64,000 nt of DNA, from NCBI GenBank assembly GCA_035252155.1, contig DATFDL010000224.1, forward strand, positions 2,984 through 66,983. Direction: 5' to 3'. Position numbers and translations under genes: made by a program. The stretch is from Pirellulales bacterium (GTDB taxonomy: Bacteria > Planctomycetota > Planctomycetia > Pirellulales > JAICIG01). Of this stretch, positions 6,070 to 51,100 are shown in pieces. The stretch's first letter is position 1. Every line of letters starts with the position of its first letter. The notes under the pieces are model-generated. The model saw only the letters and a list, made by a program, of their open reading frames with translations, was not told the DNA's origin and did no database searches.

Positions 6070-6176
6070 TGGAAAGCAACACACAATTAAGACACTGCCA
6101 CGAAAGCCATTTAGTTTACCGTTCATGCCGCTATGGTTACAATGTCGTGAAATTCGCCCCTGAAGAGGTTGCCACC

Positions 6177-7457: not shown

Positions 7458-7533
7458 GGGCGATTGACCCGATCGGGATCATCGGTAAATCGGACGACAA
7501 ACACTGCACCGGACTCGGGCTATTGATGAAGCG

Positions 7534-10463: not shown

Positions 10464-11140
10464 TGCCATCGATCTACCAGCGCGCTCTTGGCTCCGATTT
10501 TCAGAAGCTTCATCCAAAGATTCAGCAGCGCTTCGGATTTTCGAGCGACGACGGGGTGGCGTCGATCGGCTCAGGAATCATGGAAGAAATCTGGCGAGGC
10601 GGCTTCTACACCGTCCCCTTCTTGTACCTTGGCGCCGTGAGGCGGATTATGTTTCCCGAGCGGGGCCGCCACGTTCCATTCACCGTCGAAAACTATGCCT
10701 ATCGCGATCGCTTCGGTCGGGATACGGTCACTTGGATTCGGACCTTTGAAGGTCGCAAACGACGCCGCTTCGATGCCTACATGGTCTTTAGCGAATCCCG
10801 CGGCGGTGTGGTTGATTATCTAGGATCGCACCAGCATCTCGCCGTTGACCTTGACCTATCAGTCGACGAGCGGGGCGGACTCCGAATTCGCTCCAGCGCG
10901 CAACGGTTCTATGAAGGGCACGTCGCCTTCGACTTTCCAATGTCCTTGTCTGGAATTGCCGACGTTTGCGAGTGGTACGACGACGACCAGCAGGCATATC
11001 GTATCCAGGTCGAGGTCACCAACGGCAGGTGGGGGCGTCTCTTCGGGTACCGGGGCTGGTTTACGGCGAAGTGGCAGAAGGTGGATCCCTGCAAAATTCC
11101 GGATAAAGTTCGGCCGATGAGGGAGGAGCGTCGCGAATAG
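10463..11140 (+). CDS. DUF4166 domain-containing protein
   Basis: The ATG overlaps the upstream TAA (TAATG). MPSIYQRALGSDFQKLHPKIQQRF is a typical DUF4166 N-terminus. The track ORF start at 9926 is an overlap artefact. Confidence 0.7.
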   Translation: MPSIYQRALGSDFQKLHPKIQQRFGFSSDDGVASIGSGIMEEIWRGGFYTVPFLYLGAVRRIMFPERGRHVPFTVENYAYRDRFGRDTVTWIRTFEGRKRRRFDAYMVFSESRGGVVDYLGSHQHLAVDLDLSVDERGGLRIRSSAQRFYEGHVAFDFPMSLSGIADVCEWYDDDQQAYRIQVEVTNGRWGRLFGYRGWFTAKWQKVDPCKIPDKVRPMREERRE

Positions 11141-11273
11141 CACAAGCATCGACGCGATTACGGCTTGCCTTCGCTATCAGGACGACGGCTTGATCGCCAC
11201 GGTGGAAATCGAGCGAGCAAGCGACGACAAAAACGGGAATTGATCTGACTAGTAAATACTCGTCACCGCAGAC

Positions 11274-12299: not shown

Positions 12300-12307
12300 A
12301 GTGCGGC

Positions 12308-12625
12308 TTACAGATGGACGGCGATCCAACGTTCCTGTTCGCCGGGCACCGGCTTCGCAGAGGATTCGGCCCACGGGATCGACTGGCCGGCGGCGCGGTA
12401 TCGCGAGACGGCAGTTTTGAACGCCGCAACCAGCGCAGCCAGCGCCTCACGTTGGCTTTTGCCGCGGGCAACCACTTCGGGCAGGTTGCACGAGCGCGCC
12501 GAAATCCATCCCTCGGCGTCCGGAGGCGAGAGAAACGCATGGCAATTGTAAACCGGCACGCTCGCGGCCGAATTGCCGTCTTCGCTGGCGGCGTGAGGGG
12601 CCGATTCGTTCAATTCGTTATTCAT
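12308..12625 (-). CDS. HicB-like (UPF0150-fold) small protein, orphan
   Basis: An internal ATG at 12625 gives 105 aa. ...GWISARSCNLPEVVARGKSQREALAALVAAFKTAVSRYRAAGQSIPW matches the HicB antitoxin pattern. No HicA gene is adjacent. Confidence 0.4.
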   Translation of the reverse strand: MNNELNESAPHAASEDGNSAASVPVYNCHAFLSPPDAEGWISARSCNLPEVVARGKSQREALAALVAAFKTAVSRYRAAGQSIPWAESSAKPVPGEQERWIAVHL

Positions 12626-12734
12626 TTCACTGGGCGGGAGCGGGTTTTCACGCAGTCTGGCGCCTTCTCCACGGTTTGTCACGTCCGAATGCCGCGACCC
12701 TCCGCTGCCGCGGACCGTCTGCGTAAATCTTTTT

Positions 12735-14786
12735 CTAAACCGAAGGCGGTACGTCCAGAACTGGGTTACGATCGAAGAATCCATCCGGCTTGAGCGAGAA
12801 GCCCAGGGATGCCACCGGCATGACCGGCCAATCTTCGATGCGCGGCACGTGCGTGTGGCCGAAGACGTACCAAACCACCAGCGGCGTATTTTCGATGGAA
12901 CGATCGGCGGCGGTCCAAATCGGCAGACCGTCGCCCGTGGGGTGCTGGTTGGGAAAATCGCCCGCGGCGAAGCGCTGGTTGGCATCGTAGGGCGTAACCC
13001 AGAGCTGGTGATTGATGAAGCCTGCCCGCTTCACCACGGCTGCGTCGGGCTGCACGAGCGGCGGAGAATTTTCGCCCGGAACAAGTCGATAGGCTGCCGG
13101 TCTGCCCAGGTAGTTCTTGCGCTGCGGATTCAGAATCCGCCAGAAGCGCGACGAGGCGCTGTTGACCGAGCGCCGCGCGGCCAGTTCGCTCGCAAGCCGC
13201 GTCGCTTCGGCTCGGAAGGCGTTGCCGTGCGGATTCTCGGGGCCGCGGGGCACCGAGACCGTGTTGACTTCCTCCACCGAGTTGGCGTCGCCATCGACCG
13301 CCACGTCAAGCCGGGCGGCAAAAATGTGCTGGTGGAACGGCGCATTTAAGCGCGGGGCGACTTCGCTGCCAAACCGCGATTGTTCCCCAGGTTTGAGCGC
13401 CGTGGTGTTGACGATGCCCGTCAGCTTCACCTCGCACTGAATCGTCCCGTCCAGATAAAAGTGCCAATAGAACCCGTAGTCGTAGTTGCCGACGGTGGCG
13501 ATGAACGACACCACCAGCCGCCGGTTGCGGCGCGTTTCGGTTTGGCCGGTGCGCCAATCGGTGTGCTTCCAGAGCAGGCCGGCGTCTTCCTCATGTAGGC
13601 AGACGGCGTTCTTGAGGGTGACCGGCCGGCCGCGGCTGTCGCAAACGTGGACATCAAAGTACCGTACCGTTCCCAAGCAATCGCAGCCCAGGACCAGCGA
13701 GTTGGCCATTGTGCCGATGCCAAATTCGCCGATGTCGAAAGCGTTCTTGCGATAGCTGCTTTCATCAGGATCGCCATAAGGCACTACCATCTCGCCGATG
13801 CTCGCGCGGTAAAGAACCGGCCGTTCGCGGCCCTGGTCTTCATAACGAATCGTGTACAGCACGAGTCCTTCGCGAGGCGTGAAGCCGATGCGGAATTTCC
13901 ACCTCTGCCAGCTCACTTCCTGGCCGTCGACGGTGAAGCTTGGTCCGTCGGGCTGCGATACTTCGAGTGGCTTCAGGCCGCCCCGCATCTCGGGAAGATA
14001 ATCGCGCGACCAGTTGCCGCTGGCTGGCGGCAGCGGCACGGTGCCAAAATCTTCGATCCGCAGCACTTTCATCTTGTGCAGGTCGACGACGGCCACGATT
14101 CCTTCCAGCGGCCGGGCGTAGCCATTATCGCCCGGCTCGCTGCGGAGCCAGCAGAGTGCCCGCGACAACCGTCTGCCCTGGTCTTCCGGCAATTCCGTCC
14201 CATACATGCCCGCCGACCAGGCGTCGACCATCACCAGATCGACATCGCCCACGCCGCGCTTAGCCAGCGCCGCGCGAAACTCGGGCGAGCTTTTGACAGC
14301 AGCCTCGCAGTCGGCGAATTCCTCGAGCACAATGGGCGGTTGCAAGCCCGCGGCCAGCGGTTCGAACTTCGTAACCTGAGTGGTGGTCAAATCGACTTGG
14401 GCCTCGAACGCCTGTCCTTTCGCGGTGTCCATCACCAGCACGGCTGCCATCCGCGCAAGACCAGCTTGCGGCAGCGAGGCCACGGCGTTCAGGCGGCTCG
14501 GCTCGGCCAAAGTGACACTGACGAACCGCCAGGATTCGCTGAGTGATTTTTGCTGGCGGAGGGCGGCCACAGCCCGTTCGATCTCTCCGGCGGTGAGGGG
14601 ATCGAGCGGATGAGCGGCGAGTGTGGCAATCTGGTGATCGTCGGAATGCCGCTCCGTTGCTTGAGCGGCTTCGACGCACAGCCACCGTCCGGCTGCCACG
14701 AGGCCCGTCGCCGCGGCCGACGCGCCAAGAAAGGTCCTTCGTGAAGCTAAACTACCAGCCGGGACATGTTCAGGGGTGTCTGCCAT
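12735..14786 (-). CDS. copper-containing primary-amine oxidase (TPQ cofactor)
   Basis: TVGNYDYGFYWHFYLDG contains the N-Y-(D/E)-Y TPQ consensus. The Tat-type signal MADTPEHVPAGSLASRRTFLGASAAA starts at the ATG at 14786, and the track's longer N-terminus looks non-coding. Confidence 0.9.
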   Translation of the reverse strand: MADTPEHVPAGSLASRRTFLGASAAATGLVAAGRWLCVEAAQATERHSDDHQIATLAAHPLDPLTAGEIERAVAALRQQKSLSESWRFVSVTLAEPSRLNAVASLPQAGLARMAAVLVMDTAKGQAFEAQVDLTTTQVTKFEPLAAGLQPPIVLEEFADCEAAVKSSPEFRAALAKRGVGDVDLVMVDAWSAGMYGTELPEDQGRRLSRALCWLRSEPGDNGYARPLEGIVAVVDLHKMKVLRIEDFGTVPLPPASGNWSRDYLPEMRGGLKPLEVSQPDGPSFTVDGQEVSWQRWKFRIGFTPREGLVLYTIRYEDQGRERPVLYRASIGEMVVPYGDPDESSYRKNAFDIGEFGIGTMANSLVLGCDCLGTVRYFDVHVCDSRGRPVTLKNAVCLHEEDAGLLWKHTDWRTGQTETRRNRRLVVSFIATVGNYDYGFYWHFYLDGTIQCEVKLTGIVNTTALKPGEQSRFGSEVAPRLNAPFHQHIFAARLDVAVDGDANSVEEVNTVSVPRGPENPHGNAFRAEATRLASELAARRSVNSASSRFWRILNPQRKNYLGRPAAYRLVPGENSPPLVQPDAAVVKRAGFINHQLWVTPYDANQRFAAGDFPNQHPTGDGLPIWTAADRSIENTPLVVWYVFGHTHVPRIEDWPVMPVASLGFSLKPDGFFDRNPVLDVPPSV

Positions 14787-16891: not shown

Positions 16892-16964
16892 GGCTCGTTC
16901 GTCTAGCGGCTCAGGATGCCGGCCCTTCAAGCCGGAGGCCGGGGTTCGACTCCCCGACGAGCTA
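16892..16964 (+). tRNA. tRNA-Glu(TTC)-like
   Basis: Acceptor GGCTCGT/ACGAGCT (G1-U72), Glu-type D arm GTCTAGCGGCTCAGGA, anticodon stem CCGGC/GCCGG with loop CCTTCAA (C rather than U at 33), T arm CGGGG-TTCGACT-CCCCG. Confidence 0.7.
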
Positions 16965-16973
16965 CTTGAAAAG

Positions 16974-17046
16974 CAGAACGTAGGAGAGCGGCCACTCCGC
17001 CTGGTCGGGGGCCAGGAGACCGCCGGTTCGAGTCCGGCCGTTCTGA
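16974..17046 (+). tRNA. tRNA-Pro(GGG)-like
   Basis: C1-G72 and A73, D stem GGAG/CTCC, anticodon stem CCTGG/CCAGG with loop TCGGGGG (C at 33), T arm GCCGG-TTCGAGT-CCGGC. Confidence 0.7.
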
Positions 17047-17065
17047 CAGACTGAACGAAGAATCA

Positions 17066-17137
17066 CGGGATGTAGGGTAGCGGTGGCCCGCGTGCCTTGG
17101 GAGCACGAGCAAGTGGGTTCAACTCCCACCGTCCCGA
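17066..17137 (+). tRNA. tRNA-Pro(TGG)
   Basis: Canonical cloverleaf: CGGGATG/CGTCCCG, anticodon stem CGTGC/GCACG with loop CTTGGGA, T arm GTGGG-TTCAACT-CCCAC, A73. Confidence 0.9.
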
Positions 17138-17148
17138 CTCGTAATCAT

Positions 17149-17237
17149 AGTCCGGTGTTGTAACGGAAGCATGGCGATCTGATACGTCGCCGGCGACCAC
17201 GCTGCGCGCGGTGCCCGTTCGACTCCACCCCGGACTA
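17149..17237 (+). tRNA. tRNA-Ile(GAT)-like carrying a 21-nt hairpin insert
   Basis: Acceptor AGTCCGG/CCGGACT, anticodon arm GCGAT-CTGATAC-GTCGC, A73. The T stem GGCG..G/CCACC closes only if 17196-17216 (ACCACGCTGCGCGCGGTGCCC) is looped out. Confidence 0.5.
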
Positions 17238-17309
17238 CTTCGCCAAAACAAGGAGAACCACAATGCGGCAGCGACAGCGGCTCAAACGCATACGCCAGAC
17301 CGACAACAT

Positions 17310-17380
17310 GGGGTCGTGGCGTAACGGTAGCGCATCCGCCTTTTAAGCGGAAGGGTGAGGGTTCGACTCCGGCTGGGTGC
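17310..17380 (+). tRNA. tRNA-Lys(TTT)-like, probably defective
   Basis: The 5' two-thirds fold well (GGGGTCG, D stem GCG/CGC, anticodon arm TCCGC-CTTTTAA-GCGGA) and a GGTTCGACTCC T-loop is present. I could not find a 3' strand that closes the T stem or acceptor stem. Confidence 0.35.
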
Positions 17381-17388
17381 TTATAGAG

Positions 17389-17484
17389 CGGCGTGTGGGA
17401 AAGCCTGGAATTCCGCGTGCTTCGGGAGCACGAAACCGACCAACGCTGCGCGTCGGTGCCCGGGTTCAAATCCGGCCACGCCGA
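17389..17484 (+). tRNA. tRNA-Pro(CGG)-like carrying a 23-25 nt hairpin insert
   Basis: Acceptor CGGCGTG/CACGCCG (C1-G72, A73), D stem GGAA/TTCC, anticodon arm CGTGC-TTCGGGA-GCACG (same stem as the TGG isoacceptor). Insert at 17439-17461 lies just 5' of GGTTCAAATCC. Confidence 0.5.
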
Positions 17485-17490
17485 CTCGAT

Positions 17491-17565
17491 TGCGGTGGGA
17501 CCCGTGCTGGTACGGGTAGGCGGCTGTTAACCGCCCTGACGCAGGTTCGATTCCTGGCGCCGCAG
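17491..17565 (+). tRNA. tRNA-Asn(GTT)
   Basis: U1-A72 and G73, D stem ACCC/GGGT, anticodon arm GGCGG-CTGTTAA-CCGCC, T arm GCAGG-TTCGATT-CCTGG. Confidence 0.85.
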
Positions 17566-17579
17566 CTCACGATGAAAAC

Positions 17580-17664
17580 GGAACGGCAAGCCAACGGGCG
17601 ATGGCAGCCGCCTCGAAAGCGGTCGAGCAGCAATGCCTTGGGAGTTCGACTCTCCCTCCTTCCG
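17580..17664 (+). tRNA. tRNA-Ser(CGA), class II
   Basis: Acceptor GGAACGG/TCCTTCC (one C-C mismatch), anticodon arm GCCGC-CTCGAAA-GCGGT, long variable arm, T arm GGGAG-TTCGACT-CTCCC, G73. Confidence 0.8.
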
Positions 17665-17671
17665 CCTTCAC

Positions 17672-17763
17672 GTGCCCTTGGCCGAGCGGCAAAGGCTCCA
17701 GCCTTCCAAGCTGGCGCGACCAACGCTGCGCGTCGGTGCCCGGTTCGACTCTCGCAGGGCACT
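17672..17763 (+). tRNA. tRNA-Gly(TCC)-like carrying a 23-nt hairpin insert
   Basis: Acceptor GTGCCCT/AGGGCAC, U73, anticodon arm CCAGC-CTTCCAA-GCTGG. The T stem GCG..GG/CTCGC closes only if 17719-17741 is looped out. Confidence 0.5.
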
Positions 17764-17773
17764 CTTTCAATGA

Positions 17774-17844
17774 TCGGGGATCGGCTAACGGTAGGCTCCC
17801 TGGCTTTGAACCAGGAGATGGAGGTTCAAGTCCTTCTCCCCGAA
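17774..17844 (+). tRNA. tRNA-Gln(TTG)
   Basis: Acceptor TCGGGGA/TCCCCGA (U1-A72), anticodon arm CCTGG-CTTTGAA-CCAGG, T arm GGAGG-TTCAAGT-CCTTC. Confidence 0.8.
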
Positions 17845-17880
17845 CTTCGGTCGCGATGGCCGTGTCCCAAGAATACATGA

Positions 17881-17974
17881 TCCGGGGCAGTTGCTGCTGG
17901 TAGTAACGCCTGGCTCCGGGCACCGTGCGCAGCATGGTCGCAGGAAGCCATTGGTTCGATTCCAACCCCCGGAA
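17881..17974 (+). tRNA. tRNA-Arg(CCG)-like carrying the hairpin insert in inverted orientation
   Basis: Acceptor TCCGGGG/CCCCGGA, D stem GTTG/TAAC, T arm ATTGG-TTCGATT-CCAAC. The anticodon stem 5' strand CCTGG and loop CTCCGGG are followed by a ~19-nt hairpin (the 17918-17938 element) before the 3' strand GCAGG. Confidence 0.45.
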
Positions 17975-17986
17975 CTTTAGACATAC

Positions 17987-18071
17987 GGAGGTCATCCGGC
18001 CGGATGAGGAGCCTGTCTTGAAAACAGGTGGCGGCGCAAGTCGCTTGTGAGTTCGAGTCTCACGGCCTCCG
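17987..18071 (+). tRNA. tRNA-Ser(TGA), class II
   Basis: Acceptor GGAGGTC/GGCCTCC, anticodon arm CCTGT-CTTGAAA-ACAGG, long variable arm, T arm GTGAG-TTCGAGT-CTCAC, G73. Confidence 0.8.
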
Positions 18072-18085
18072 CCTCTGGTGAAACA

Positions 18086-18158
18086 CGTCCCGTGGCCTAG
18101 TAGCGAAGGCAGCGCCTCCACACGGCGAAGATCGACAGTGCGAGTCTGTCCGGGACTA
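18086..18158 (+). tRNA. tRNA-Val(CAC)-like
   Basis: D stem GCC/GGC, anticodon stem CGCC/GGCG with loop TCCACAC (C at 33), T arm GACAG-TGCGAGT-CTGTC (G at 55), C1-U72 mismatch, A73. Confidence 0.55.
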
Positions 18159-18159
18159 C

Positions 18160-18234
18160 GTCCTCGTGGAGCAGCCAGGAGTGCTCGCCTGCTTGTCAGG
18201 CAGGAGGTCGCGGGTTCAAGTCCCGCCGGGGACG
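18160..18234 (+). tRNA. tRNA-Asp(GTC)
   Basis: Canonical: GTCCTCG/CGGGGAC, D stem GAGC/GCTC, anticodon arm CCTGC-TTGTCAG-GCAGG, T arm GCGGG-TTCAAGT-CCCGC, G73. Confidence 0.9.
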
Positions 18235-18248
18235 CTTTCATAAAGCAC

Positions 18249-18323
18249 GGCGCGGTACGCAAACAGGCAAAGCGGCCAAGCTCAAACCTTGGTGACCTGT
18301 CGGTTCGATTCCGACCTGCGCCA
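18249..18323 (+). tRNA. tRNA with anticodon CAA (Leu) on a short-variable-loop (class I) body
   Basis: Acceptor GGCGCGG/CTGCGCC, D stem CGC/GCG, anticodon arm CCAAG-CTCAAAC-CTTGG, ~6-nt variable loop, T arm GTCGG-TTCGATT-CCGAC, A73. Confidence 0.6.
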
Positions 18324-18459
18324 CTCGCACAACGAGCAACATGCGTCGGTTGAGCATTCGGATACAAAATCAGCGTCTATTGAGTGAACAGTGCTGGCCG
18401 GCGTTAACCGTGCGACGGCAATACGATCGAGTCCTGAACCCCGAACCTTGAACCCTCCC

Positions 18460-19050
18460 ATGGCCAAGATGCTCAACAGGCCGGCGCTGGTGCTCAACCG
18501 CAACTGGCAGCCGGTGAACGTCGCCACCGTCGCTCGCGCGCTGGTCATGCTCTTCAATGAGGCGGCCCGCGTCGTCGATCCGGCTGACTACCAGCTCTAC
18601 ACCTGGGCTGACTGGTCAGGGCTGGCTCCGCGCGACGGCGAGCCGTTCATCCAGGCGGTGAGCATGCGGTTGCGCGTACCGGAGGTGATCGTGCTGGCGG
18701 GCTACGATCGGCTGCCCGAAGCGGCCGTGGCGTTCAGCCGGCGGAACATCTTCAAGCGCGACCACTACACTTGCCAGTATTGCGGCGTACAGCCGGGCGT
18801 CGAGGAGCTGTCGATCGACCACGTAATTCCGCGGTCGCAAGGCGGCATCTCGACCTGGGACAACTGCGTGCTGGCGTGCGTGGAGTGCAACAAGCGCAAG
18901 GCCAACCGCACGCCGGCTGAGGCGGGCATGAAGCTGCGCAAGCAACCTTGCCGCCCGCAGTGGAAGCCGCTCTATGCTGCGCACAGCGTGCGTGTCGAGA
19001 GCTGGTCGAAGTTTGTCAGCGAGGCTTATTGGAGCGTCGAACTCCGCTGA
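18460..19050 (+). CDS. HNH endonuclease
   Basis: DHYTCQYCGVQPGVEELSIDHVIPRSQGGISTWDNCVLACVECNKRKANRTP is an HNH motif with two CxxC pairs. The likely start is the ATG at 18460 (MAKMLNRPALVLNRNWQPVN). Confidence 0.9.
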   Translation: MAKMLNRPALVLNRNWQPVNVATVARALVMLFNEAARVVDPADYQLYTWADWSGLAPRDGEPFIQAVSMRLRVPEVIVLAGYDRLPEAAVAFSRRNIFKRDHYTCQYCGVQPGVEELSIDHVIPRSQGGISTWDNCVLACVECNKRKANRTPAEAGMKLRKQPCRPQWKPLYAAHSVRVESWSKFVSEAYWSVELR

Positions 19051-19066
19051 GCCGCAGTTGAAGCAA

Positions 19067-19096
19067 GCCGATCCAAGCGGGGCAGCTTGGATCGGC
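19067..19096 (+). terminator. 12-bp perfect hairpin after the HNH gene
   Basis: GCCGATCCAAGC-GGGGCA-GCTTGGATCGGC. No U-run follows, so it could be a processing or terminator element. Confidence 0.4.
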
Positions 19097-19101
19097 CTTA
19101 C

Positions 19102-19171
19102 AGGATCGTGCTCCTGGGAGAGCCAGCGGTCTCCAAAGCCGCTTTACGGGGTTCGACTCCTCGCGATCCTG
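19102..19171 (+). tRNA. tRNA-Trp(CCA)-like
   Basis: Acceptor AGGATCG/CGATCCT, anticodon arm GCGGT-CTCCAAA-GCCGC, T arm CGGGG-TTCGACT-CCTCG, G73. The D arm is unusually small (CTC-CTGG-GAG). Confidence 0.65.
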
Positions 19172-19174
19172 CTT

Positions 19175-19245
19175 GTCCTGCGAGTGTGATGGAAGCACGG
19201 CAATCTTCGGAACTGTAAGACGGGGTCCGATTCCTCGGCGGGGTG
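19175..19245 (+). tRNA. tRNA-Arg(TCG)-like
   Basis: Acceptor GTCCTGC/GCGGGGT (three G-U pairs), D stem GTGT/GCAC, anticodon arm GCAAT-CTTCGGA-ACTGT (one mismatch), T arm CGGGG-TCCGATT-CCTCG (C at 55). Confidence 0.55.
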
Positions 19246-19264
19246 CTGCTGGTCATAACAACTT

Positions 19265-19337
19265 GTCCTCGGAGTGTGCCGGATTCGCACTCGAGCCCGC
19301 GAAGCTCGTAGACCAGGTTCGATTCCTGGCGAGGACG
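19265..19337 (+). tRNA. tRNA-Arg(GCG)-like
   Basis: Acceptor GTCCTCG/CGAGGAC, D stem GTGT/GCAC, anticodon stem CGAGC/GCTCG with loop CCGCGAA (C at 33), T arm CCAGG-TTCGATT-CCTGG. Confidence 0.7.
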
Positions 19338-19349
19338 CTTGAACAACCC

Positions 19350-19422
19350 GACGCTGGAGCCAGACGGCACGGCAACCGCCTGCAGAGCGGTTTCAAGCGG
19401 GTTCGACTCCCGCCGGCGTTTC
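19350..19422 (+). tRNA. tRNA-Cys(GCA)
   Basis: Acceptor GACGCTG/CGGCGTT, D stem GCC/GGC, anticodon arm ACCGC-CTGCAGA-GCGGT, T arm GCGGG-TTCGACT-CCCGC, U73. Confidence 0.85.
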
Positions 19423-36198: not shown

Positions 36199-36300
36199 AG
36201 AAACGGACGAAAAATAACTTCGGCATACAGATTCCTCTCCCTCCGGGAGAGGTTAGGTGAGGGCCGACATAATTGCCGACGTTACTTTTTCGTCCGCTCC
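36199..36300. repeat. ~100-nt palindromic REP/MITE-like element
   Basis: Outer arms AACGGACGAAAAATAACTTCGGCA / TGCCGACGTTACTTTTTCGTCCGC enclose a CCTCTCCC-TCCG-GGAGAGG hairpin plus GGTGAGGGC. Related copies lie at 38101-38130, 51026-51054 and 51070-51100. Confidence 0.7.
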
Positions 36301-36860
36301 TTTGGGAAGCGAATCGGACGGCGGGCTACAACTATGAATCTAACGCGATCCCCTCGGAGCATCAACCTGAGGGGCTTGAATCACCCGCGCCTGGTGAAGC
36401 AGAGTCAGGCTCTGCGGGCGAGGCACCGGGCAAGGGAGAACTAAGCCCACGGGCGACTCAATGACGCCTGGCTGCCTTGTCAGAGCGCTCTGCCAAGACG
36501 GCTTATTTTTTCTCTCCCATTGAACGCCCTAGCCATGCCGCTAATCGTGGTCACCGTAGAGTTCGGTGCGCGAGAAAGTGCCCTCGGCGATGGGCCGGTG
36601 GAAGCTTCCTGGTAGACCAATCGGTCAAGCTCGTCCGGAGTAATCGTGCGCATTGCGGTGCAAGTTTCAGCCAGTGAAATCTTCTCCAAATAAGCCTGCA
36701 CCAAATCCTGAATCCCGCCCCGCGCTCCCCGCCCAAGCCTCCTGCCCCCAGCCGCGACCCACGCCCGACGCTCCCCGTCCCTCGCCCCTCGCTCCACACC
36801 TCACGGCCCCGCCCCCCGGTAATCTGTTCGCCGACGCGAGAGCGAGAGGGTATTATTGGA

Positions 36861-37262
36861 ATGGTTCATTCCGGCCGCGAGCGAGATGTGCCCCACCGCC
36901 GCCGCGGTCGAGGTAAGGGTAATCCAGTGCCAAAACTCGCTGAAAGCAACCTGCCAACCTTGATTCAGCGCATCACGTCGCGGATCTTGAAGCGGTTTCA
37001 CCCGGACAAGGTGATCCTATTTGGTTCTCAGGCGCGCGGAAACACAACCGCGGACAGCGACTTGGATTTGCTGGTGGTGATGGATTTTGAGGGGTCGAAG
37101 CTCGACAAGATGGTCGAGGTACGCGAGGTGCTGAGGGGGATCAGGATCCCGACGGACATTCTCATCACGACGCCCGACGACTTCGCCTGGCGCAAGGACG
37201 TGGTGGGCACCATTGAATGGCCGGCTTTCCATGAAGGCCAAGTCCTTTATGCCCGCGCCTAG
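36861..37262 (+). CDS. nucleotidyltransferase (MNT-type antitoxin)
   Basis: KVILFGSQARGNTTADSDLDLLVV is the NTase GS...D.D motif. The true start may be the GTG at 36927. Confidence 0.75.
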   Translation: MVHSGRERDVPHRRRGRGKGNPVPKLAESNLPTLIQRITSRILKRFHPDKVILFGSQARGNTTADSDLDLLVVMDFEGSKLDKMVEVREVLRGIRIPTDILITTPDDFAWRKDVVGTIEWPAFHEGQVLYARA

Positions 37263-37673
37263 CAATCCGCAGTTAGCCGTTCTGCGTCAATGGGTCGAGA
37301 AGGCCGAACACGACCTGACGGCCGCCAGACAGATTCAAAAGCTCGGCAAGGCCGCGCCGACGGATACGATTTGTTTTCACGCGCAGCAATGCGTCGAGAA
37401 GTATCTTAAGGCCGCTCTGGTCAACCTAGGGATTCCCTTCGCAAAGACCCACGACATCGAAGTGCTGATGAAGCTGATTCCGCCTAAGCACCGGCCAGCC
37501 ATGACGCCGACGGAGCAGAATTATTCACCAGTTATGCGGTCGTGGTTCGATATCCGCAAGCCGGACTGGCGATTCCTCTGCGCGAATCGCGCAGGGCGGT
37601 GGCCATCGCGCGGCGCATTCGCCGCGAAGTGCGCCGCTCGTTGCCCAGGTCGGCGGTACGGCGCACCAAGTGA
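37249..37673 (+). pseudogene. HEPN domain protein (toxin partner of MNT) with a frameshift near 37500-37515
   Basis: The N-terminal half is in the 37249 frame (LRQWVEKAEHDLTAARQI...HAQQCVEKYLKA). The C-terminal half AELFTSYAVVVRYPQAGLAIPLRESRRAVAIARRIRREV, with an HEPN-like YAV..RYP motif, is in another frame ending at TGA 37671-37673. The 277-aa track ORF is readthrough into repeats. Confidence 0.6.
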
Positions 37674-37884
37674 GCACGATTCTTCCGATCAGTCGGCCCC
37701 TAGTTCTCGAGCCTCCAGCGCCCAGTCCCCAATCCCAAGCCTCCGTCCCCAGTCCCTCCGCTCCACGCCCCACGCCTCCCGCCCCACGGCTACCAATCCA
37801 GCCTGGGCCAGTTGCTGCACAGCGCGGTTTACCTCGGCGGCTTTTGGCTTCCCCGACCTCCGAATCGGGACCGCGTCGCCTCGT

Positions 37885-37936
37885 CATTTTGCATTTTACT
37901 TTTGCATTTTGCATTTCGGTCTTTGCAAATTTGCAC
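37885..37936. repeat. AT-rich cluster of five TTTGCA hexamers
   Basis: CATTTTGCATTTTACTTTTGCATTTTGCATTTCGGTCTTTGCAAATTTGCAC. Confidence 0.8.
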
Positions 37937-38201
37937 TCACCGTGCGCGGCGAAGCGCGGAAAAACCACTTACGGCGATCTACGAGAGAGGCCAGAGGTCG
38001 GAGGTCGGAGACCGGGGCAGGAGAAAAAAGCCAACGGGCTAACTAAAGGGTGCGCTGCCACCCCCTGACCCCCGACCTCTGAATCCCCACCCATTTCCTC
38101 GGCCCTCACCCAGCCTCTCCCGGAGGGGGCTTTGCACCGCAACCTCGCCAAAAACGGAGGTTGTTGGGCAGCCGCCAAGGTTGTTGTGCAGTGACCTCGG
38201 C

Positions 38202-38495
38202 TCAATTCTCGTCGCCCCCATTCAAGGGCAGCACAAACTCAACACCGATTTCCATTTGATTCTGGAGCGCCAGCAGACCATTGGCGAACTGGCGAAGGTC
38301 TTTATCGACGTTGGGTCGCTGTCGTAGATCCTTGCCACAAATCGGGCAGATCAACGCTCCATTGACCAACCCAGAGACCGGCACTTCGGCGTAGGCATCG
38401 CCACATTGCATGCACTTGATTCGCACTCGCTCCAATTCCTTGGCTGGAAACCGAATCAGCTTTTCCATGACCGTTCCCTTGGTTTTTCGCTTCAT
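38202..38495 (-). CDS. small zinc-ribbon protein
   Basis: CMQCG ... CPICG double CxxC motif. The start could be the internal MEKLIRF. Confidence 0.45.
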   Translation of the reverse strand: MKRKTKGTVMEKLIRFPAKELERVRIKCMQCGDAYAEVPVSGLVNGALICPICGKDLRQRPNVDKDLRQFANGLLALQNQMEIGVEFVLPLNGGDEN

Positions 38496-38502
38496 TCGCC
38501 CC

Positions 38503-38871
38503 CTAGTTACTCTGCTGGCTCAATTGCTCCCGCAGATCGTCTTCGTCTTCGGCATTGCCGTGGAACATCATCCCCGGCTCGCTTATGCCGATCTTGTGAG
38601 CCAAGTAGCCCATCCTGAAAAACTGATCTGCAAAATCCGGGTTCTCTGGCTCGTCGGCATGCTCAACCTCTCGGCAGAACCAAAGCCGATCACGGTCATC
38701 TTTGAGCAAAAAGCAACCTTCCTCTTGAACTTCGGCTTCTGAGCCAGCCCTGAAACAGCAACGGTAAAGCGGCATGTCATTTCTCCGCTGGAGAATGGTT
38801 GTGGTTGGCTCGCCGTTGATGGATCGAACCTCGACGGCGAAGTATCGCTTGATGATAGGGCTGGTCTGCAT
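38503..38871 (-). CDS. hypothetical acidic protein
   Basis: 122-aa ORF located 30 nt downstream of acr3, with island-like composition. No family recognised. Confidence 0.4.
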   Translation of the reverse strand: MQTSPIIKRYFAVEVRSINGEPTTTILQRRNDMPLYRCCFRAGSEAEVQEEGCFLLKDDRDRLWFCREVEHADEPENPDFADQFFRMGYLAHKIGISEPGMMFHGNAEDEDDLREQLSQQSN

Positions 38872-38901
38872 GATTTAGAAGAGTGTGCGGCAGCCGTTTT
38901 T

Positions 38902-39981
38902 TCATTCGGCAGATGGCACAGCGGATCGACCGACCGACCAGCCAAAATACCGCCGCTGGAAGTAGAGCGAAACGCTTACCAATCCAATCAAGACCGGCAC
39001 TTCCACCAGTGGACCAATCACTGCGGCAAACGCTTCGCCCGAATTGATCCCAAACACGGCGACAGCAACGGCGATAGCTAACTCAAAGTTGTTGCTGGCT
39101 GCCGTGAAAGAGACCGTCGCCGATTTGGAGTAGTCAGCACCGATCAACCGACCCATCCAAAAGCTGACCAAGAACATCACGACAAAGTAGATCAGCAACG
39201 GCACTGCGATGCGGATCACGTCGAAGGGAATCTGCACGATCAAGCTTCCCTTCAAGCTGAACATGACGAGGATTGTGAACAAGAGCGAGACCAAAGTAAT
39301 GGGGCTGATTGCAGGGATGAAGCGGCGATCGTACCATTCCTTGCCTTTCAGCCTGAGCAGCACGAAGCGAGAGATGATGCCTGCCAAGAAGGGGATGCCC
39401 AGGTAGATGAGAACGCTTTGAGCGATTTCAGCCATGCTGACTTGCACGACGCTGCCTGAAACGCCGAACAACGGCGGCAGTACGGTGATAAAGAACCAAG
39501 CGTAGGCGCTGTAAAAGAGGACTTGGAAAACGCTGTTGAACGCCACCAGCCCCGCAGCGTATTCGCTGTCCCCCTTGGCTAGCTCGTTCCAGACAATGAC
39601 CATCGCAATGCACCGAGCCAAGCCAATCATTATCAGCCCGACCATGTAGTCGGGCTGCTCTTGGAGGAACAGAAGCGCCAAACCGAACATGAGCACTGGA
39701 CCGATGAGCCAGTTCTGGACGAGCGATAACCCGAGAATCTTCCAGTCCCGAAACACCTCGCCCATTTCCTCGTAGCGGACTTTCGCCAGCGGCGGGTACA
39801 TCATCAGAATCAAGCCGATGGCAATAAGCACGTTCGTCGTGCCGATCTGAAACTGGTTGATGATCGTCTCGACGCTCGGAATAAAATGCCCGATAGCAAC
39901 TCCCGCAGCCATCGCCAAAAATATCCAGAGCGTCAGATACCGATCTAAGAACGCCAAGCGTTTTGTAGTTCCGTTACTCAT
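38902..39981 (-). CDS. acr3: ACR3 family arsenite efflux transporter
   Basis: [25 protein letters not shown]...[13 protein letters not shown] plus about 10 TM helices. Confidence 0.9.
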
Positions 39982-40411
39982 TTGTTTTCCTTTCTAGGTT
40001 GTCGGGCAGATGCTCGACGAATGTTTTGATTTCATCCCGGATTCGGCGGTAATGGTTCAGAGCTTCTTCATCCGTTTTGGCGTCTCTCGCTAGCCGTGGC
40101 GGGTCATCGAAGCCGACGTGAACGATTCGAGCGCCGGGCAAGACAGGGCAGCTTTCGTGGGCGTGATCGCAAACGGTTACGACATAATCGAAGGTAATGT
40201 CTGCTAGTTCATCCACGTGCTTTGAGTGCTGGTTTGAGATGTCTATGCCGGACTCAGCCATAACTTGGATGGCTCGCTCGTTCATGCCATGAGGATCGAC
40301 ACCCGCCGAGTACGCCTCGATGCAATCAGCCTTGAGTGCCTTTGCCCAACCCTCAGCCATCTGGCTTCGGCAGGAATTTCCGGTGCATAAAAAGAGGATT
40401 CTTGTTTTCAT
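39974..40411 (-). CDS. arsC: arsenate reductase, LMW-PTPase (thioredoxin-coupled) type
   Basis: [18 protein letters not shown]-loop (CX5R). Overlaps the acr3 start by 8 nt. Confidence 0.9.
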
Positions 40412-40428
40412 ATTTGCTTAGGCGAATG

Positions 40429-40441
40429 TTCGTTTGACGAA
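40429..40441. promoter_or_regulatory. palindrome TTCGTTTGACGAA upstream of arsC (ArsR-operator-like)
   Basis: Inverted half-sites TTCGT/ACGAA lie 18 nt upstream of the arsC ATG. Same motif as 40825-40840. Confidence 0.35.
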
Positions 40442-40467
40442 TAGAATGTCCTTGGTCGCAGTAGGGT

Positions 40468-40824
40468 TTAGTCGCAGCAACCAGTTTTGCCGCAGAGCTT
40501 CAGTTTCTCGGCGTCTCGACTAAACTGAGGCAAGTCCTCATCGCAGGCTGCCAAACAATCGAGCAGCTTGGATCGCAGAGGCGACGGATTGCTTGCCAAG
40601 CGGTAATACGCCCAGTGCCCCTCTTTGCGTGCCTGCACCAGACCCGCTCGTCGCAGGTAAGCCAAATGGCGTGAGACCTTCGGTTGTGGCACATTCAGGA
40701 CAGCGACCAGATCGCAAACACAAACCTCGCCGCTTCGCAGCAGATTGAGGATGCGCAACCGAGTGCGGTCAGCCATCGCTCTAAAGACCAACTCGACGGG
40801 TCGCTGTTTTGCCTTCGTTTTCAT
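40468..40824 (-). CDS. arsR: ArsR/SmtB family transcriptional repressor
   Basis: FRAMADRTRLRILNLLRSGEVCVCDLVAVLNVPQPKVSRHLAYLRRAGLV (HTH with a CVC metal site) and a C-terminal CGKTGCC. Confidence 0.9.
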   Translation of the reverse strand: MKTKAKQRPVELVFRAMADRTRLRILNLLRSGEVCVCDLVAVLNVPQPKVSRHLAYLRRAGLVQARKEGHWAYYRLASNPSPLRSKLLDCLAACDEDLPQFSRDAEKLKLCGKTGCCD

Positions 40825-40840
40825 ATTCGTTTAGACGAAT
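40825..40840. promoter_or_regulatory. palindrome ATTCGTTTAGACGAAT abutting the arsR start (ArsR-operator-like)
   Basis: Inverted half-sites ATTCGT/ACGAAT sit immediately upstream of the arsR ATG. Confidence 0.35.
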
Positions 40841-40863
40841 GTTAGCAGAACCGACAGAACCCG

Positions 40864-42129
40864 TCAACCATCTGACGAAAATGTTTGCGGAGCTTCAGAC
40901 TCCTTCTCGTGAAAGAATTCGGGCTCGATGCCCAATTCATACATTTCCTGTATCAAGACACAGATGTTGTGGCATAGCAGCTTGCACAGAACCTCGTTCA
41001 CCATCGCCACGTCGGTCTTGCTCCGAATGTGGTCACGGAACTTGGTCTTAATCATCATGAAGGTGCTCTCAACATTGCTCCGCTGATGGTAATGCTTAAG
41101 AAACTCCTCTCGCTTAAACTTAAAGTAATGATACATCTTTGCCCATAGACCACCGCCTTTTCCCGTGTGAATCGCCTTGAAGCAGATGTAGGGCACTGCT
41201 CCATAAGCGGCGACCGTGTTCGTGTTCTTAATGCTGGCATAGCCCTTGTCTGCGCAAACTTCCTCCATCGTAAAGTTCTCGGCGGTTGTTTTAACCAGAT
41301 CGGGCAACAACTTGGTGTCGCTGGCATCCTTGTCCCGGATCTCGACCGCCGTTACAACATTTGTTTTGACGCCGCACATGATATGGACCTTCACCCACTC
41401 ATGCTGGCGGCGCTCGACCCCGTTCCGGTGATCGAGCCACTTAATGAACCTTGAAGTCGTGAAGCCAGTGCTGTCGGCAGCGAACACCGTCTCGACTTCC
41501 TTAAGTGGCAGGCTCGCCATGACGATCAAATCCCGCAGAACTGGCGTGATTTCAGGGTTTTGCAGATAGTTAAAGATCGAGTTGAAGTGGGGCACTCGGC
41601 TGATATAGCCTTTCTCTTTGGCTTCCCGCAGGTCGGTCATAAAGCGCCGACCACTGACCGTGCTGTAAATCTTAAATGTTGCAGCGAAGATGGCATCACC
41701 GAGCGGCAAGAACGGTCGCCCGCCCTTGGGCTGCTCCCGCTTGGGTTCATCAATCGTCCCGCATAGATCCGCCAGAAGTTGTTGGAACTTGGCTTTCTCG
41801 TTGGTTTGGGCAGCATTATATGCCCTCCAAACTTGCGGATAGGTCTTGCGTTCCTTGATCTCGACCGAGTTCGTCACGATCTCGCTCCCATCCGGGCTTT
41901 TTTCCCGCTTGATGAGGAACTCGACGGCGAAGATGTGCTTGCACTTACCGCCCCGAGTCTCGTGGTCTGGACAGGTGCAATGTGGGTTGCTGGGGTCGGG
42001 GCAGACTGTATACCTGCCCTTGCCCGATTGCGACGGGACGAGGTAAACGCCGCCCTTCTGCTCAATCCTGCACATCGCAGCGATGCGGAGTCCCCGTTGT
42101 TCCCGAACGTCCAGATTGGCTGTTTCCAT
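40864..42129 (-). CDS. DDE transposase (IS5/IS4-like) with N-terminal SWIM zinc finger
   Basis: CTCPDHETRGGKCKHIFA (SWIM). FAADSTGF, CADKGY and YHQRSNVESTFMMIKTKF match DDE_Tnp_1-type motifs. I could not identify terminal inverted repeats for a discrete IS. Confidence 0.8.
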   Translation of the reverse strand: METANLDVREQRGLRIAAMCRIEQKGGVYLVPSQSGKGRYTVCPDPSNPHCTCPDHETRGGKCKHIFAVEFLIKREKSPDGSEIVTNSVEIKERKTYPQVWRAYNAAQTNEKAKFQQLLADLCGTIDEPKREQPKGGRPFLPLGDAIFAATFKIYSTVSGRRFMTDLREAKEKGYISRVPHFNSIFNYLQNPEITPVLRDLIVMASLPLKEVETVFAADSTGFTTSRFIKWLDHRNGVERRQHEWVKVHIMCGVKTNVVTAVEIRDKDASDTKLLPDLVKTTAENFTMEEVCADKGYASIKNTNTVAAYGAVPYICFKAIHTGKGGGLWAKMYHYFKFKREEFLKHYHQRSNVESTFMMIKTKFRDHIRSKTDVAMVNEVLCKLLCHNICVLIQEMYELGIEPEFFHEKESEAPQTFSSDG

Positions 42130-42251
42130 TGGGTTGAACCTCTTACCTTGTAGTATATACCTACAAGTAATATACGGCTCGGTTTACCCAGTGTAAAGCA
42201 CTTCGACGGTTTTACTGGACGGAATATGCCGCCAGTAATATACTGTGAGGT

Positions 42252-42404
42252 ATGGCGAAAAAGATCCAACTCTGGGGCTGGTCGTGCCTCCGCTGTGGGC
42301 ATACATGGCTGCCTCGTAACAAGGACGAACAGCCGAGGGTCTGCCCAAAATGCAAGAGTCCCTACTGGGATCGCCCCAGAGAGTCGGAGAAGCGCAAAGA
42401 TTGA
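42252..42404 (+). CDS. 50-aa zinc-ribbon protein
   Basis: MAKKIQLWGWSCLRCGHTWLPRNKDEQPRVCPKCKSPYWDRPRESEKRKD. It is below the track length cut-off and has two CxxC pairs. Confidence 0.45.
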   Translation: MAKKIQLWGWSCLRCGHTWLPRNKDEQPRVCPKCKSPYWDRPRESEKRKD

Positions 42405-42520
42405 TGGCGCAAACCTTTGGCTATCAATGGCTTGCGACAGGCACAAAAATTCCGGTGCGGCTCGTTGACTTTGTCGAGCCAGTCGTCTAAGTTAACCCAT
42501 AGTTGATTGCTCAAAAGACG

Positions 42521-42593
42521 TTGCGGGGGAGGGAATTGAACCCTCATTCGACGCTTTAAAGGCGTTCGTCCTACCCAATTAGACGACCCCGCA
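42521..42593 (-). tRNA. tRNA with anticodon TTA (reads UAA; ochre-suppressor type)
   Basis: Reverse strand: TGCGGGG TC GTC-TAATTGGGTAG-GAC G AACGC-CTTTAAA-GCGTC GAAT GAGGG-TTCAATT-CCCTC CCCCGCA A. It has a perfect 7-bp acceptor (U1-A72), a perfect T arm, U33, A36-A37-A38 and A73. Confidence 0.75.
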
Positions 42594-42740
42594 AGCCTTT
42601 TGAAAAAACAGCAACCAGAGCCGGGGAAGCGCACAGCGACCCCGCAGGCAAAATGCCTGACTTTGCCAGAGCGCTCCGGTGGCTAAGGCAAAGGCTCGGT
42701 GGGATTTCCAAGGTCCGTCTACCGAGCCTTTTTTATGCGC

Positions 42741-43148
42741 TCATTTTCGTTTTGAGTAGATCGTCGCTCTCCTCCCTTTGCCGAGTTCGACCATAGTAAT
42801 CGTGCCCTCGCTGGACAGCTTCTTCAAGTGCCCCGATAGCGCCGGTTGATCGACTTCGCCGCCGTGCTCCTCGATGAACTTCTGCACCTCCCTGATGGTG
42901 AAGTGCTCGTCGCTGGGGAGCTTGGCGATGGCCTGCATGACCATATCCCGCCAGCCACGTATCACGCCTTGGGCACTGGCGTGCCCGTTAATCATTTGTG
43001 GCGGGGGCATGTTCTTGTTGAACAGCGCCCAAGTAGTATCGAGAGCCTCGATCTTACGCTGGCTTTCTTCTTCGATGACTTGTCGGGCCTTCAAATAATC
43101 CTGCCGGGTCATATTGGCATGATAGGACTTATGCCGACGAGCCGTCAA
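42741..43148 (-). CDS. hypothetical protein with a possible C-terminal winged-helix
   Basis: 135-aa ORF with island-like composition. The C-terminus LSGHLKKLSSEGTITMVELGKGRRATIYSK is wHTH-like. Confidence 0.45.
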   Translation of the reverse strand: MTARRHKSYHANMTRQDYLKARQVIEEESQRKIEALDTTWALFNKNMPPPQMINGHASAQGVIRGWRDMVMQAIAKLPSDEHFTIREVQKFIEEHGGEVDQPALSGHLKKLSSEGTITMVELGKGRRATIYSKRK

Positions 43149-43677
43149 GTAGCCCCAGAAGAATTTTCTTGGGAGGTAGTTGTGGGGCAGAATACTAGCT
43201 TATTGGGCAGGACGAGGTTGCTGTGCAAAGCCCCCGGAGGGAGAGGAGACGAGGCGAAGGGGCGACACGGCGACACGGCGAGGGGGCGACAAGGCGATGC
43301 TCCCTGACTGCCGAATCCTGAATGCCGAATCCTTGAACCAGCGCTTGCGTAAGCGGTGATTGATATTTTGCAAGGTCGCCCTAAACGTGCATGGTGCAGC
43401 AGCTTGCGAGTGCAGAGCAGCCGCGGGTGGCCCTGTTCTTCGCAAGCAAATCGATGCGGCCGGGCACGATGAACGAAATCGGAGTGACAGCCGCAACGCA
43501 ATCGCAGTGCGATTGGCTCATCGCTTGACCGGCCGGTGGTCGCGGCATCTATTAACGCTTGTTGACGCGCCGATCATGCGATCGTGACTAAGTGCCTAAC
43601 CGACAACCGGCAGGCAGTCCTGACGCCCGCACCAGAACGCCGGTTCTCGAATAGGCTCGAAGTATGAGGAGCTCAAA

Positions 43678-51025: not shown

Positions 51026-51100
51026 GCCCTCACCTGGCCTCTCCCAGAGGGAGAAGCAAAGATAGATCAGCCCTCACTTGGCCTTTCCCAGCGGGAGAGG
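51026..51100. repeat. two tandem REP-like hairpin elements
   Basis: CCCTCACCTGGCCTCTCCCAGAGGGAGA and CCCTCACTTGGCCTTTCCCAGCGGGAGAGG. The flank AACGGACGAAAAAT (51007-51020) also occurs at 36202-36215. Confidence 0.7.

Follow-up and report, generated by a model that had tools for sequence, protein, structure and literature searches.

The 64-kb stretch of DNA analyzed here (hereafter the window) is part of contig DATFDL010000224.1 of a Pirellulales metagenome-assembled genome. With a probability of roughly 90%, positions 38128-43232 of this window are a single 5105-bp unit transposon with passenger genes; the large family of which it is a member is a distant relative of the IS903 group (IS5 family). 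The element has one transposase and one pair of terminal repeats, and its target-site duplication encloses all of its genes, which comprise eight open reading frames (ORFs) and one transfer RNA (tRNA) gene. An earlier note, made from the sequence alone, had described the region as a horizontally acquired, mobile arsenic-resistance island bounded by repeats, and this general picture is borne out by a step in G+C content, by the terminal repeats, and by the duplication. For this genome, the analysis replaces a loosely described island with a transposon whose boundaries are exact and whose ends, duplication, and target are defined, and it shows a route by which arsenic resistance reached a Pirellulales chromosome.

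Boundaries of the Element and Its Insertion Site

The longest inverted repeat between positions 35000 and 46000 has arms of 34 nt (38114-38147 and 43213-43246) that are 88% complementary. Slightly longer arms of 36 nt had previously been reported to match at 31 of 36 positions, a figure that was reproduced when the matches were recounted by hand on the sequence. Each arm is not the single unit that had been supposed, but instead consists of an inner 22-nt transposon terminal repeat and an outer 14 nt that belong to a split target, a repetitive extragenic palindrome (REP). The inner 22 nt (38128-38149 and 43211-43232) are identical at 20 of 22 positions, with the consensus GGCTTTGCAC(C/A)GCAACCTCG(C/T)C, and are the true terminal repeats of the transposon. 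The left repeat, far from the start of the transposase gene (GGCTTTGCACCGCAACCTCGCC, 38128-38149, forward strand), carries a GGCTTTGCAC terminus shared with over 60 related loci, and the repeat at the transposase-proximal end (GGCTTTGCACAGCAACCTCGTC, 43211-43232, reverse strand) shows the same junction in an independent Logan assembly (L078; L-numbers are labels of related loci). The 20-mer GGCTTTGCACNGCAACCTCG occurs at only two sites in the window when up to three mismatches are allowed, against an expectation of 0.03. The core of the terminal repeat, AGGTTGTTGNGCAG, has seven matches in the window, where 1.3 would be expected, and four of the seven are no more than 80 bp from an end of the element. 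Two subterminal copies of this core (AGGTTGTTGGGCAG and AGGTTGTTGTGCAG) are located at 38158-38191 and another at the right end at 43197-43210, all on the forward strand; judging only from their position, they are probably extra transposase-binding sites.

The outer 14 nt of the arms are the two halves of one REP hairpin and include a 9-bp duplication. Whereas no clear target-site duplication had been seen before, a perfect direct repeat of CCCGGAGGG (9 of 9 bases) is present at 38119-38127 on the left and at 43233-43241 on the right, and it is because this stretch repeats directly and not in inverted orientation that the 36-nt repeat has its three central mismatches (GGA versus TCC). The left junction reads ...GCCCTCACCCAG CCTCT[CCCGGAGGG]GGCTTTGCACCGCAACCTCGCC... 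and the right junction reads ...GACGAGGTTGCTGTGCAAAGCC[CCCGGAGGG]AGAGG.... The left part of the split target (GCCCTCACC-CAG-CCTCT..., 38099-38118) is host DNA with a 93% match to the REP copy at 36239-36267, and the remainder of the 3' arm of the hairpin (AGAGG, 43242-43246) is likewise host DNA.

Deletion of 38128-43241 yields a complete REP, GCCCTCACC-CAG-CCTCTCCC-GGA-GGGAGAGG. When joined computationally, the flanks give CCTCTCCCGGAGGGAGAGG, and the reconstructed empty site, ...CACCCAGCCTCTCCCGGAGGGAGAGGAGACGAGG..., is the same as the intact REP copies in the window. Intact REP-like hairpins of the form CCTCTCCC-NNN-GGGAGAGG occur at 36234-36252, 51038-51056, and 51082-51100, in agreement with the earlier report of such a hairpin family elsewhere in the window; where the flanks of such a copy were read, they contain GCCCTCAC(C/T) at a distance of three bases from one arm. 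The proposal that the island had inserted into a REP-like hairpin is upheld by this restoration of an intact REP on removal of the element.

The element has a G+C content of 0.536, compared to 0.622 for the rest of the window and 0.620 and 0.618 for its 5-kb flanks. Along the sequence, sliding G+C falls from ~0.61-0.64 to ~0.52-0.55 between approximately 38150 and 43250, with the step at the repeats, as was to be expected from the earlier description of an AT-richer island. All parts of the element are low in G+C (0.51-0.57), including the ars genes. The gene content given in the earlier note, namely arsR, arsC, acr3, a transposase, a 50-aa zinc-ribbon gene, a tRNA(UUA) gene, and a winged-helix ORF, was recovered in full, and its statement that the island lacks an integrase also holds: Pfam and NCBIfam revealed no tyrosine or serine recombinase domain in any island ORF, and no REP-associated tyrosine transposase was identified. 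The tRNA gene lies 618 bp inside the element and not at its edge, unlike in integrase-type islands, in which a tRNA gene is often the site of the attachment direct repeats. The organization is also not that of a composite transposon, with one transposase gene and no internal repeat copies.

The Transposase and Its Zinc-Ribbon Partner

The transposase gene (40864-42129, reverse strand) codes for a 421-aa protein that matches Pfam DDE_Tnp_1 (PF01609; 73 bits against a cutoff of 23, E 3e-20) and, weakly, SWIM. Residues C51, C53, C63, and H65 make up an N-terminal SWIM-type zinc finger of the form CxCx9CxH, and the catalytic core is IS5/IS903-like, comprising D219, D294, and E354 together with a YREK motif (Y347, R350, E354, and K361; Y-x2-R-x3-E-x6-K). 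The DDE, YREK, and CxCx9CxH residues are conserved in at least 47 of 48 aligned full-length transposases, and all are present in the window protein. The best NCBIfam model is NF033579 (109.6 bits, E 1.9e-31, profile positions 49-287 of 289), and other IS5-family NCBIfam models score the protein at only 21-23 bits. NF033579 is also the best model for the IS903B transposase of plasmid Rts1, which it scores at 356 bits.

Divergently oriented to the transposase gene is a gene for a 50-aa zinc-ribbon protein (42252-42404, forward strand). The control region between them (42130-42251) contains one promoter-like site per strand, at 42197-42169 on the reverse strand and at 42216-42244 on the forward strand, both of which are consensus matches only. 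Homologs of the zinc-ribbon protein with 40-73% identity are coded divergently ~110-150 bp upstream of the transposase in ~42 of 76 loci with a homologous transposase (see below). The zinc-ribbon gene, as the partner of the transposase, is thus part of the conserved core of the family and not incidental cargo, and its position points to a role for the protein as a regulator or cofactor.

A Family of Cargo-Carrying Transposons

Homologs of the transposase are abundant, with 7671 of 8000 scored candidates matching at E ≤ 0.001. The top homologs are 65-76% identical, are ~410-420 aa in length, and are called just "transposase" by their sources. A scan of one genome per species yielded 76 loci with a homologous transposase, which span the Planctomycetota, Alphaproteobacteria, Verrucomicrobiota, Acidobacteriota, and Chloroflexota as well as a Methanoperedens and a Woesearchaeote. 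Inverted GGCTTTGCAC... termini surround the transposase in nearly all of these loci, and 43 of 64 scored elements, including that of the window, are bounded by perfect 9-bp duplications. Elements of the family range from 2.1 to 7.6 kb in length, and the transposase is never alone: extra genes are always carried.

Two pairs of copies bear on how these elements move. In one metagenome-assembled genome, L027 (4684 bp) and L029 (4682 bp) are 99.94% identical, and their homology stops precisely at the tips of the repeats, outside of which they have differing duplications (TCGGCGGGT and TTGCGCCGC). Likewise, L003 and L031 are 3175-bp copies in one genome that are 99.7% identical, with the duplications CCCTTGGGG and CCCTCCGGG. 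As judged from these sequence pairs, whole cargo-bearing units have been shown to move as one piece in relatives of the window element.

Among viral contigs the family is rare, with three real matches. A 73%-identical relative with a tRNA(UUA) gene (L080, positions 4349-14257; ENA ERZ17987536 NODE_42) is situated amid 12 other tRNA genes, and its surroundings, which comprise many small ORFs on the same strand, have a phage-like look. The same element is present in L081 with another left flank and the duplication ATGATGATG.

To examine target choice, empty sites were rebuilt for the 43 elements with perfect duplications. By eye, ~15 to 19 of the 43 targets are hairpins of the form (C)CTCTCC-CC NNN GG-GGAGAG(G). 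A stem of at least 6 contiguous bp around a 3-nt loop is present in 7 of the 43 targets, compared to 0.05% of random positions in the same loci, and counts by target position yield a symmetric consensus (T-7, C-6, C-4 ... G+3, G+6, A+7). Read on the transposase strand, the window duplication is CCCTCCGGG, and an identical duplication was identified in L031, L036, and L056; L082 and L088 have targets of a like hairpin kind. The remaining members are inserted in unrelated 9-mers, some of which are AT-rich. Targeting of REP-type hairpins is thus a preference and not an absolute specificity. A near-identical hairpin, (C)CTCTCCC-N3-4-GGGAGAG(G), was observed as the target in L003, L011, L012, L031, L036, L056, L058, L060, L082, and L088, the hosts of which are Planctomycetota, Alphaproteobacteria, a deltaproteobacterium, Dehalococcoidia, and Acidobacteriota.

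Cargo of Relatives and the Arsenic Cassette

Cargo was scanned with Pfam in 45 related elements whose duplications agree at 8 or 9 of their 9 bases; the scan covered 111 ORFs of 120 aa or longer and revealed mostly restriction-modification, defense, and toxin domains. The most frequent was N6_Mtase (10 ORFs), followed by Eco57I, SDH_protease, and HTH_3 (4 ORFs each), HSDR_N and Trypsin_2 (3 each), and Methylase_S, N6_N4_Mtase, Mrr_cat, and Peptidase_M78 (2 each), while EcoRI methylase, C5 methylase, GmrSD_N, DarT, SocA_Panacea, Fic, and HNH were each identified in a single ORF.

The window element carries a different set of genes downstream of its transposase, all on the reverse strand. These comprise arsR, coding for a metalloregulator (40468-40824; NF033788, 101.5 bits against a cutoff of 55; Pfam HTH_5) with a CVC motif; arsC, coding for a thioredoxin-type arsenate reductase of the low-molecular-weight phosphatase (LMWPc) family (39974-40411; Pfam LMWPc, E 1.4e-18); acr3, coding for an arsenite efflux permease (38902-39981; TIGR00832, 457.5 bits against a cutoff of 282.8); a 122-aa ORF (38503-38871); and a 97-aa zinc-ribbon ORF with a CxxC...CxxC pattern (38202-38495). 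ArsC scores 144 bits against TIGR02691, for which the cutoff is 174, and has the motif CTGNSCRS. By its sequence, the ars cassette (ArsR, ArsC, and Acr3) looks complete. A 27-nt box over the arsC start codon (40404-40430) is repeated directly, with 89% identity, over the arsR start codon (40817-40843). Both boxes contain the palindrome CATTCG-N6-CGAAT, and ArsC and ArsR both begin with MKT; from their position only, the paired boxes are probable ArsR operators.

No homolog of the ars genes or of the 97-aa and 122-aa ORFs was detected in any other family element searched, which makes them cargo specific to the window element. The nearest homologs of Acr3 are 82-90% identical; the best two (87-90%) are on short contigs, and the named homologs (82-83%) are from Gemmataceae and other Planctomycetota. 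The closest arsC-acr3 loci (L094 and L095, both on short contigs) have 83% nucleotide identity and contain neither the repeats nor the two small ORFs. Pfam, NCBIfam, PADLOC, and PHROGs were uninformative on the four small ORFs, namely those of 97 aa, 122 aa, and 50 aa and the one for the winged-helix protein; for the 97-aa ORF, there was no significant match in the first three databases, and the PHROGs matches were weak (E ≥ 5e-4) and to families of unknown function.

The tRNA(UUA) and Winged-Helix Module

Between the right repeat and the zinc-ribbon gene, the element codes for a tRNA with the anticodon UUA (42520-42593, reverse strand; ARAGORN, Rfam RF00005) that would read the UAA stop codon. 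It scores 59.9 bits against RF00005, for which the gathering score is 29, and folds into a canonical 7/5 cloverleaf, the anticodon loop of which reads CUUUAAA. Its closest counterpart among the 17 remaining tRNAs of the window is tRNA-Gln(UUG), with which it shares 54 of 74 positions and a U1-A72 pair. The glutamine anticodon UUG is converted to UUA by a single base change, the same change by which classical glutamine ochre suppressors arise.

The elements with the closest transposases (69-76% identity) have orthologs of this tRNA, placed in the interval from the upstream repeat to the transposase. ARAGORN identified them in L001, L051, L080/L081, L086, and L089 and missed that of L088, which was found by eye. 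Across the four distinct orthologs that were scored, the anticodon is invariant and the D and T arms are nearly constant, while compensatory changes affect three pairs of the acceptor stem and all five of the anticodon stem; two more orthologs, read by eye, add two anticodon-stem variants. Such compensation is the mark of a gene that is under selection for tRNA structure.

The tRNA gene co-occurs with a gene for a winged-helix protein of 123 aa (42741-43112, reverse strand; 135 aa from a TTG at 43148). Homologs of this protein were detected by tblastn in L001 and L051. Gene calls and sequence reading, and these only, revealed similar genes of 123-126 aa before the tRNA in L080, L081, L086, and L088 and a homologous winged-helix C-terminus before the tRNA in L089. 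The family comprises ~170 clusters of small proteins. An AlphaFold2 model of the window protein has a predicted local distance difference test (pLDDT) score of 69, and its best Foldseek matches are winged helices of the Fur/PadR/MarR type (E ~3e-3); the protein thus models as a generic, Fur/PadR/MarR-like DNA-binding fold. Collectively, these observations suggest that the tRNA(UUA) and the winged-helix gene form a module that is kept in the closest subclade and is inherited with the transposase.

When four elements were screened for UAA read as sense, no consistently interrupted or extended gene was identified. The host does not avoid TAA stops, with 6 of 32 long ORFs ending in TAA. The module may be a functional unit and not junk, possibly a regulated ochre suppressor that serves host manipulation, abortive-infection-type defense, or control of the transposon. 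This idea is speculation, and its sole prompt is that the module fills a cargo slot in which relatives carry defense genes. When it is combined with the claim of an undescribed, cross-phylum family of hairpin-preferring, IS903-like cargo transposons that shuttles defense, toxin, and resistance genes, we consider the joint proposal rather unlikely.

Several other family elements were observed to carry other tRNA genes just upstream of the transposase. These comprise Leu(UAA) in L042 (3481-3577), Ser(GCU) in L044 (7277-7355), Ser(GCU) and a long-variable-arm tRNA(UUA) in L022 (the pair at 6928-7015 and 7576-7651), an Asp tRNA in L012 (9410-9498), and a 94-nt Gly(GCC) tRNA in L088 (291-384). In L092, a Leu(UAA) gene (5150-5236) is just upstream of the transposase, its placement being relative to the transposase and not to mapped element ends. 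Some of these tRNAs may be allo-tRNA-like and mistranslating.

Proposed Insertion Mechanism and Alternative Explanations

The proposed account of the locus is as follows. The DDE transposase would bind the 22-bp terminal repeats, and probably also the subterminal core copies, and the whole unit would have moved as a single piece, as shown for its relatives. The transposase would have cut with a 9-bp stagger in the loop region of the host REP hairpin CCTCTCCC-GGA-GGGAGAGG, and repair of the gaps would have doubled CCCGGAGGG, as is recorded in the sequence of the two junctions. The core of the family consists of the transposase and the divergent 50-aa zinc-ribbon protein, with cargo in two slots. 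One slot, from the 3' end of the transposase gene to the left repeat, is here filled by a presumably ArsR-controlled arsR / arsC-acr3 cassette and two small genes, and the other, from the right repeat to the zinc-ribbon gene, by the winged-helix gene and the tRNA(UUA).

Some results weigh against this interpretation. The transposase falls under the cutoff of NF033579 (109.6 versus 140 bits), and it has only 25% identity to the IS903B transposase over 79 aa, which makes the relationship to IS903 a distant one. Two metagenome scans recovered no empty site from relatives: the exact 34-mer of the reconstructed site and a flank-anchored gapped pattern each had 0 matches in metagenome contigs. No second copy of this exact element was found in the searched collections, where the exact transposase was identified only in two other assemblies, and present-day activity of the element is therefore unproven. 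In addition, the roles assigned above to the zinc-ribbon protein, the subterminal repeats, and the ArsR boxes are read from position only.

Alternatively, the region might be a genomic island that was integrated or mobilized by recombination between REP copies, either through a REP-associated tyrosine transposase or through homologous recombination, with the internal transposase being incidental. The earlier note had raised mobilization through such repeats, and the outer 14 nt of the arms are indeed REP sequence, with more REP copies elsewhere in the window. However, the REP pieces at the two ends add up to one hairpin, cut in half, with a 9-bp direct repeat, and not to two full copies, and the island has neither an integrase nor a REP-associated tyrosine transposase of its own. 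What it does have is a DDE transposase with GGCTTTGCAC ends, and over 60 related elements have kept such ends: there, the non-REP inner 22 nt accompany homologous transposases at many non-REP targets. Mobilization through REP repeats is thus displaced as an explanation, and we consider recombination between REP copies to be extremely improbable.

A scenario in which only the transposase and zinc-ribbon core is mobile, the ars genes being resident or separately acquired and the outer repeats an accident or a decayed relic, has somewhat more in its favor, yet we still judge it to be very improbable. In 23 scored relatives, the repeat lies 21-87 bp past the transposase stop, compared to 2.7 kb here, and the ars genes are absent from every other family element searched. 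Against this, no repeat-like sequence is present between the transposase stop (40864) and arsR, the low G+C content is uniform throughout, ars included, and only insertion of all 5105 bp at once accounts for the perfect duplication and the reconstructed REP. Moreover, other members, among them L051, L048, L056, and L062, have 1-4 kb in the downstream slot together with perfect duplications.

That the inverted repeat arose by chance, or as an artefact of metagenome assembly, is an explanation with next to no weight, even though the source is a metagenome-assembled genome and GGGGGCTTTGCAC alone is no rarer than chance at two mismatches. The low expectation for the 20-mer argues against chance, as does the recurrence of the same architecture in at least 60 loci. 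In three assemblies (NCBI TPA, ENA, and Logan), the transposase is in a matching gene neighborhood as far as each contig extends; the right junction was verified at the sequence level in the Logan contig only, and the agreement with the ENA assembly is one of gene neighborhood.

Features Surrounding the Element

Intergenic DNA around the island is filled with C-rich and G-rich low-complexity repeats (36650-36830, 37670-38113, and 43242-43330), including a run of GGCGACAC with a period of 8 nt at 43245-43292, and the low-complexity repeats there yield long spurious ORFs on both strands. Directly to the left of the island is a pair of the MNT nucleotidyltransferase / HEPN toxin-antitoxin type (36861-38046). 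The HEPN match spans profile positions 2-65 of 117, and the ORF continues for ~150 aa into low-complexity, REP-like DNA; to judge from its sequence, the HEPN gene is probably truncated or frameshifted. A DUF1501 gene is also among the flanking genes. Farther away, an array of 16 tRNA genes occupies 16892-19422 on the forward strand and has a G+C content equal to that of the host. Three of its tRNAs, Ile-gat (90 nt), Pro-cgg (97 nt), and Gly-tcc (93 nt), have in common, in the variable/T-arm region, an insert of ~25 nt whose sequence is close to GACCAACGCTGCGCGTCGGTGCCCGG.

Comparison With Known Systems

As a unit transposon with arsenic resistance, the island is nothing out of the ordinary. 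Its family is an IS903-type variant in which the transposase has a SWIM domain and a zinc-ribbon partner, cargo is obligatory, and hairpin loops are preferred as targets, and the family is apparently unnamed, judged by the literature and by NCBI annotation ("transposase" only). No description of the family was found in literature on SWIM-DDE insertion sequences, on the repeat sequence, or on transposon-borne suppressor tRNAs.

Elements of the IS903 group are ~1 kb long and have a single transposase ORF according to their description in ISfinder. Like IS903 and IS903B, the window element has a DDE_Tnp_1 transposase with a YREK motif, terminal repeats that begin with GGC and share the first seven nucleotides (GGCTTTG), and a 9-bp duplication. 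Hu and Derbyshire reportedly found in 1998 that IS903 prefers symmetric targets. On real plasmid sequence, the ends of IS903B read GGCTTTGTTG..., with GGCTTTGTTGAATAAATC on both sides. IS903B makes 9-bp target duplications (PMC9769513). In contrast to IS903, which has a single gene in 1.06 kb, the window element comprises eight ORFs and a tRNA gene in 5105 bp, and it therefore departs from the compact, single-ORF form of the group. Its transposase is longer (421 aa, with the N-terminal SWIM-type region, versus 307-322 aa), and its family has a conserved divergent zinc-ribbon partner gene, unlike IS903. A tblastn search of 72,556 plasmids returned only IS5-family matches with 22-30% identity.

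Transporter insertion sequences and unit transposons resemble the window family in having one transposase and one pair of repeats with passengers inside, and in the duplication of whole units (as for L027 and L029). They differ in transposase family, in the two cargo slots beside the core, and in the cargo spectrum, which here consists mostly of restriction-modification, defense, and toxin genes and, in the window element, of arsenic resistance and a tRNA. Elements that target REPs include IS1397 and ISKpn1 of the IS3 family and the REP-specific IS110-family elements of Pseudomonas. As in these, insertion of the window element is in the loop or center of a REP-type palindrome, but the transposase family is unrelated, and the preference is partial, with many family members in non-REP sites and a better fit to a symmetric consensus than to strict REP recognition. 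The arsenic genes are nothing unusual in themselves, forming what looks like the full set of an arsR-arsC-acr3 operon; they differ from ordinary operons of this type in being inside a transposon and in having the operator-like box doubled at the arsR and arsC starts.

Collectively, our findings describe a very large family of cargo transposons that moves restriction-modification, defense, toxin, resistance, and tRNA genes among soil bacteria and archaea. Only its conserved tRNA(UUA) module is truly surprising, and a transposon lineage that retains a UAA-reading tRNA with compensatory evolution was unexpected. The nearest parallel in the literature is a report of irregular allo-tRNAs in soil bacteria (Mukai et al., 2017; PMC5389517), some with the anticodon UUA, that are neighbors of toxin-antitoxin systems and a transposon-related ORF. 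The window tRNA is similar to these in having a stop-codon anticodon in a soil bacterium and a tie to mobile or selfish DNA. It differs from the 8/4 or 9/3 allo-tRNAs in being canonical (7/5) and Gln-like, in lying inside a defined transposon, and in being conserved with it.

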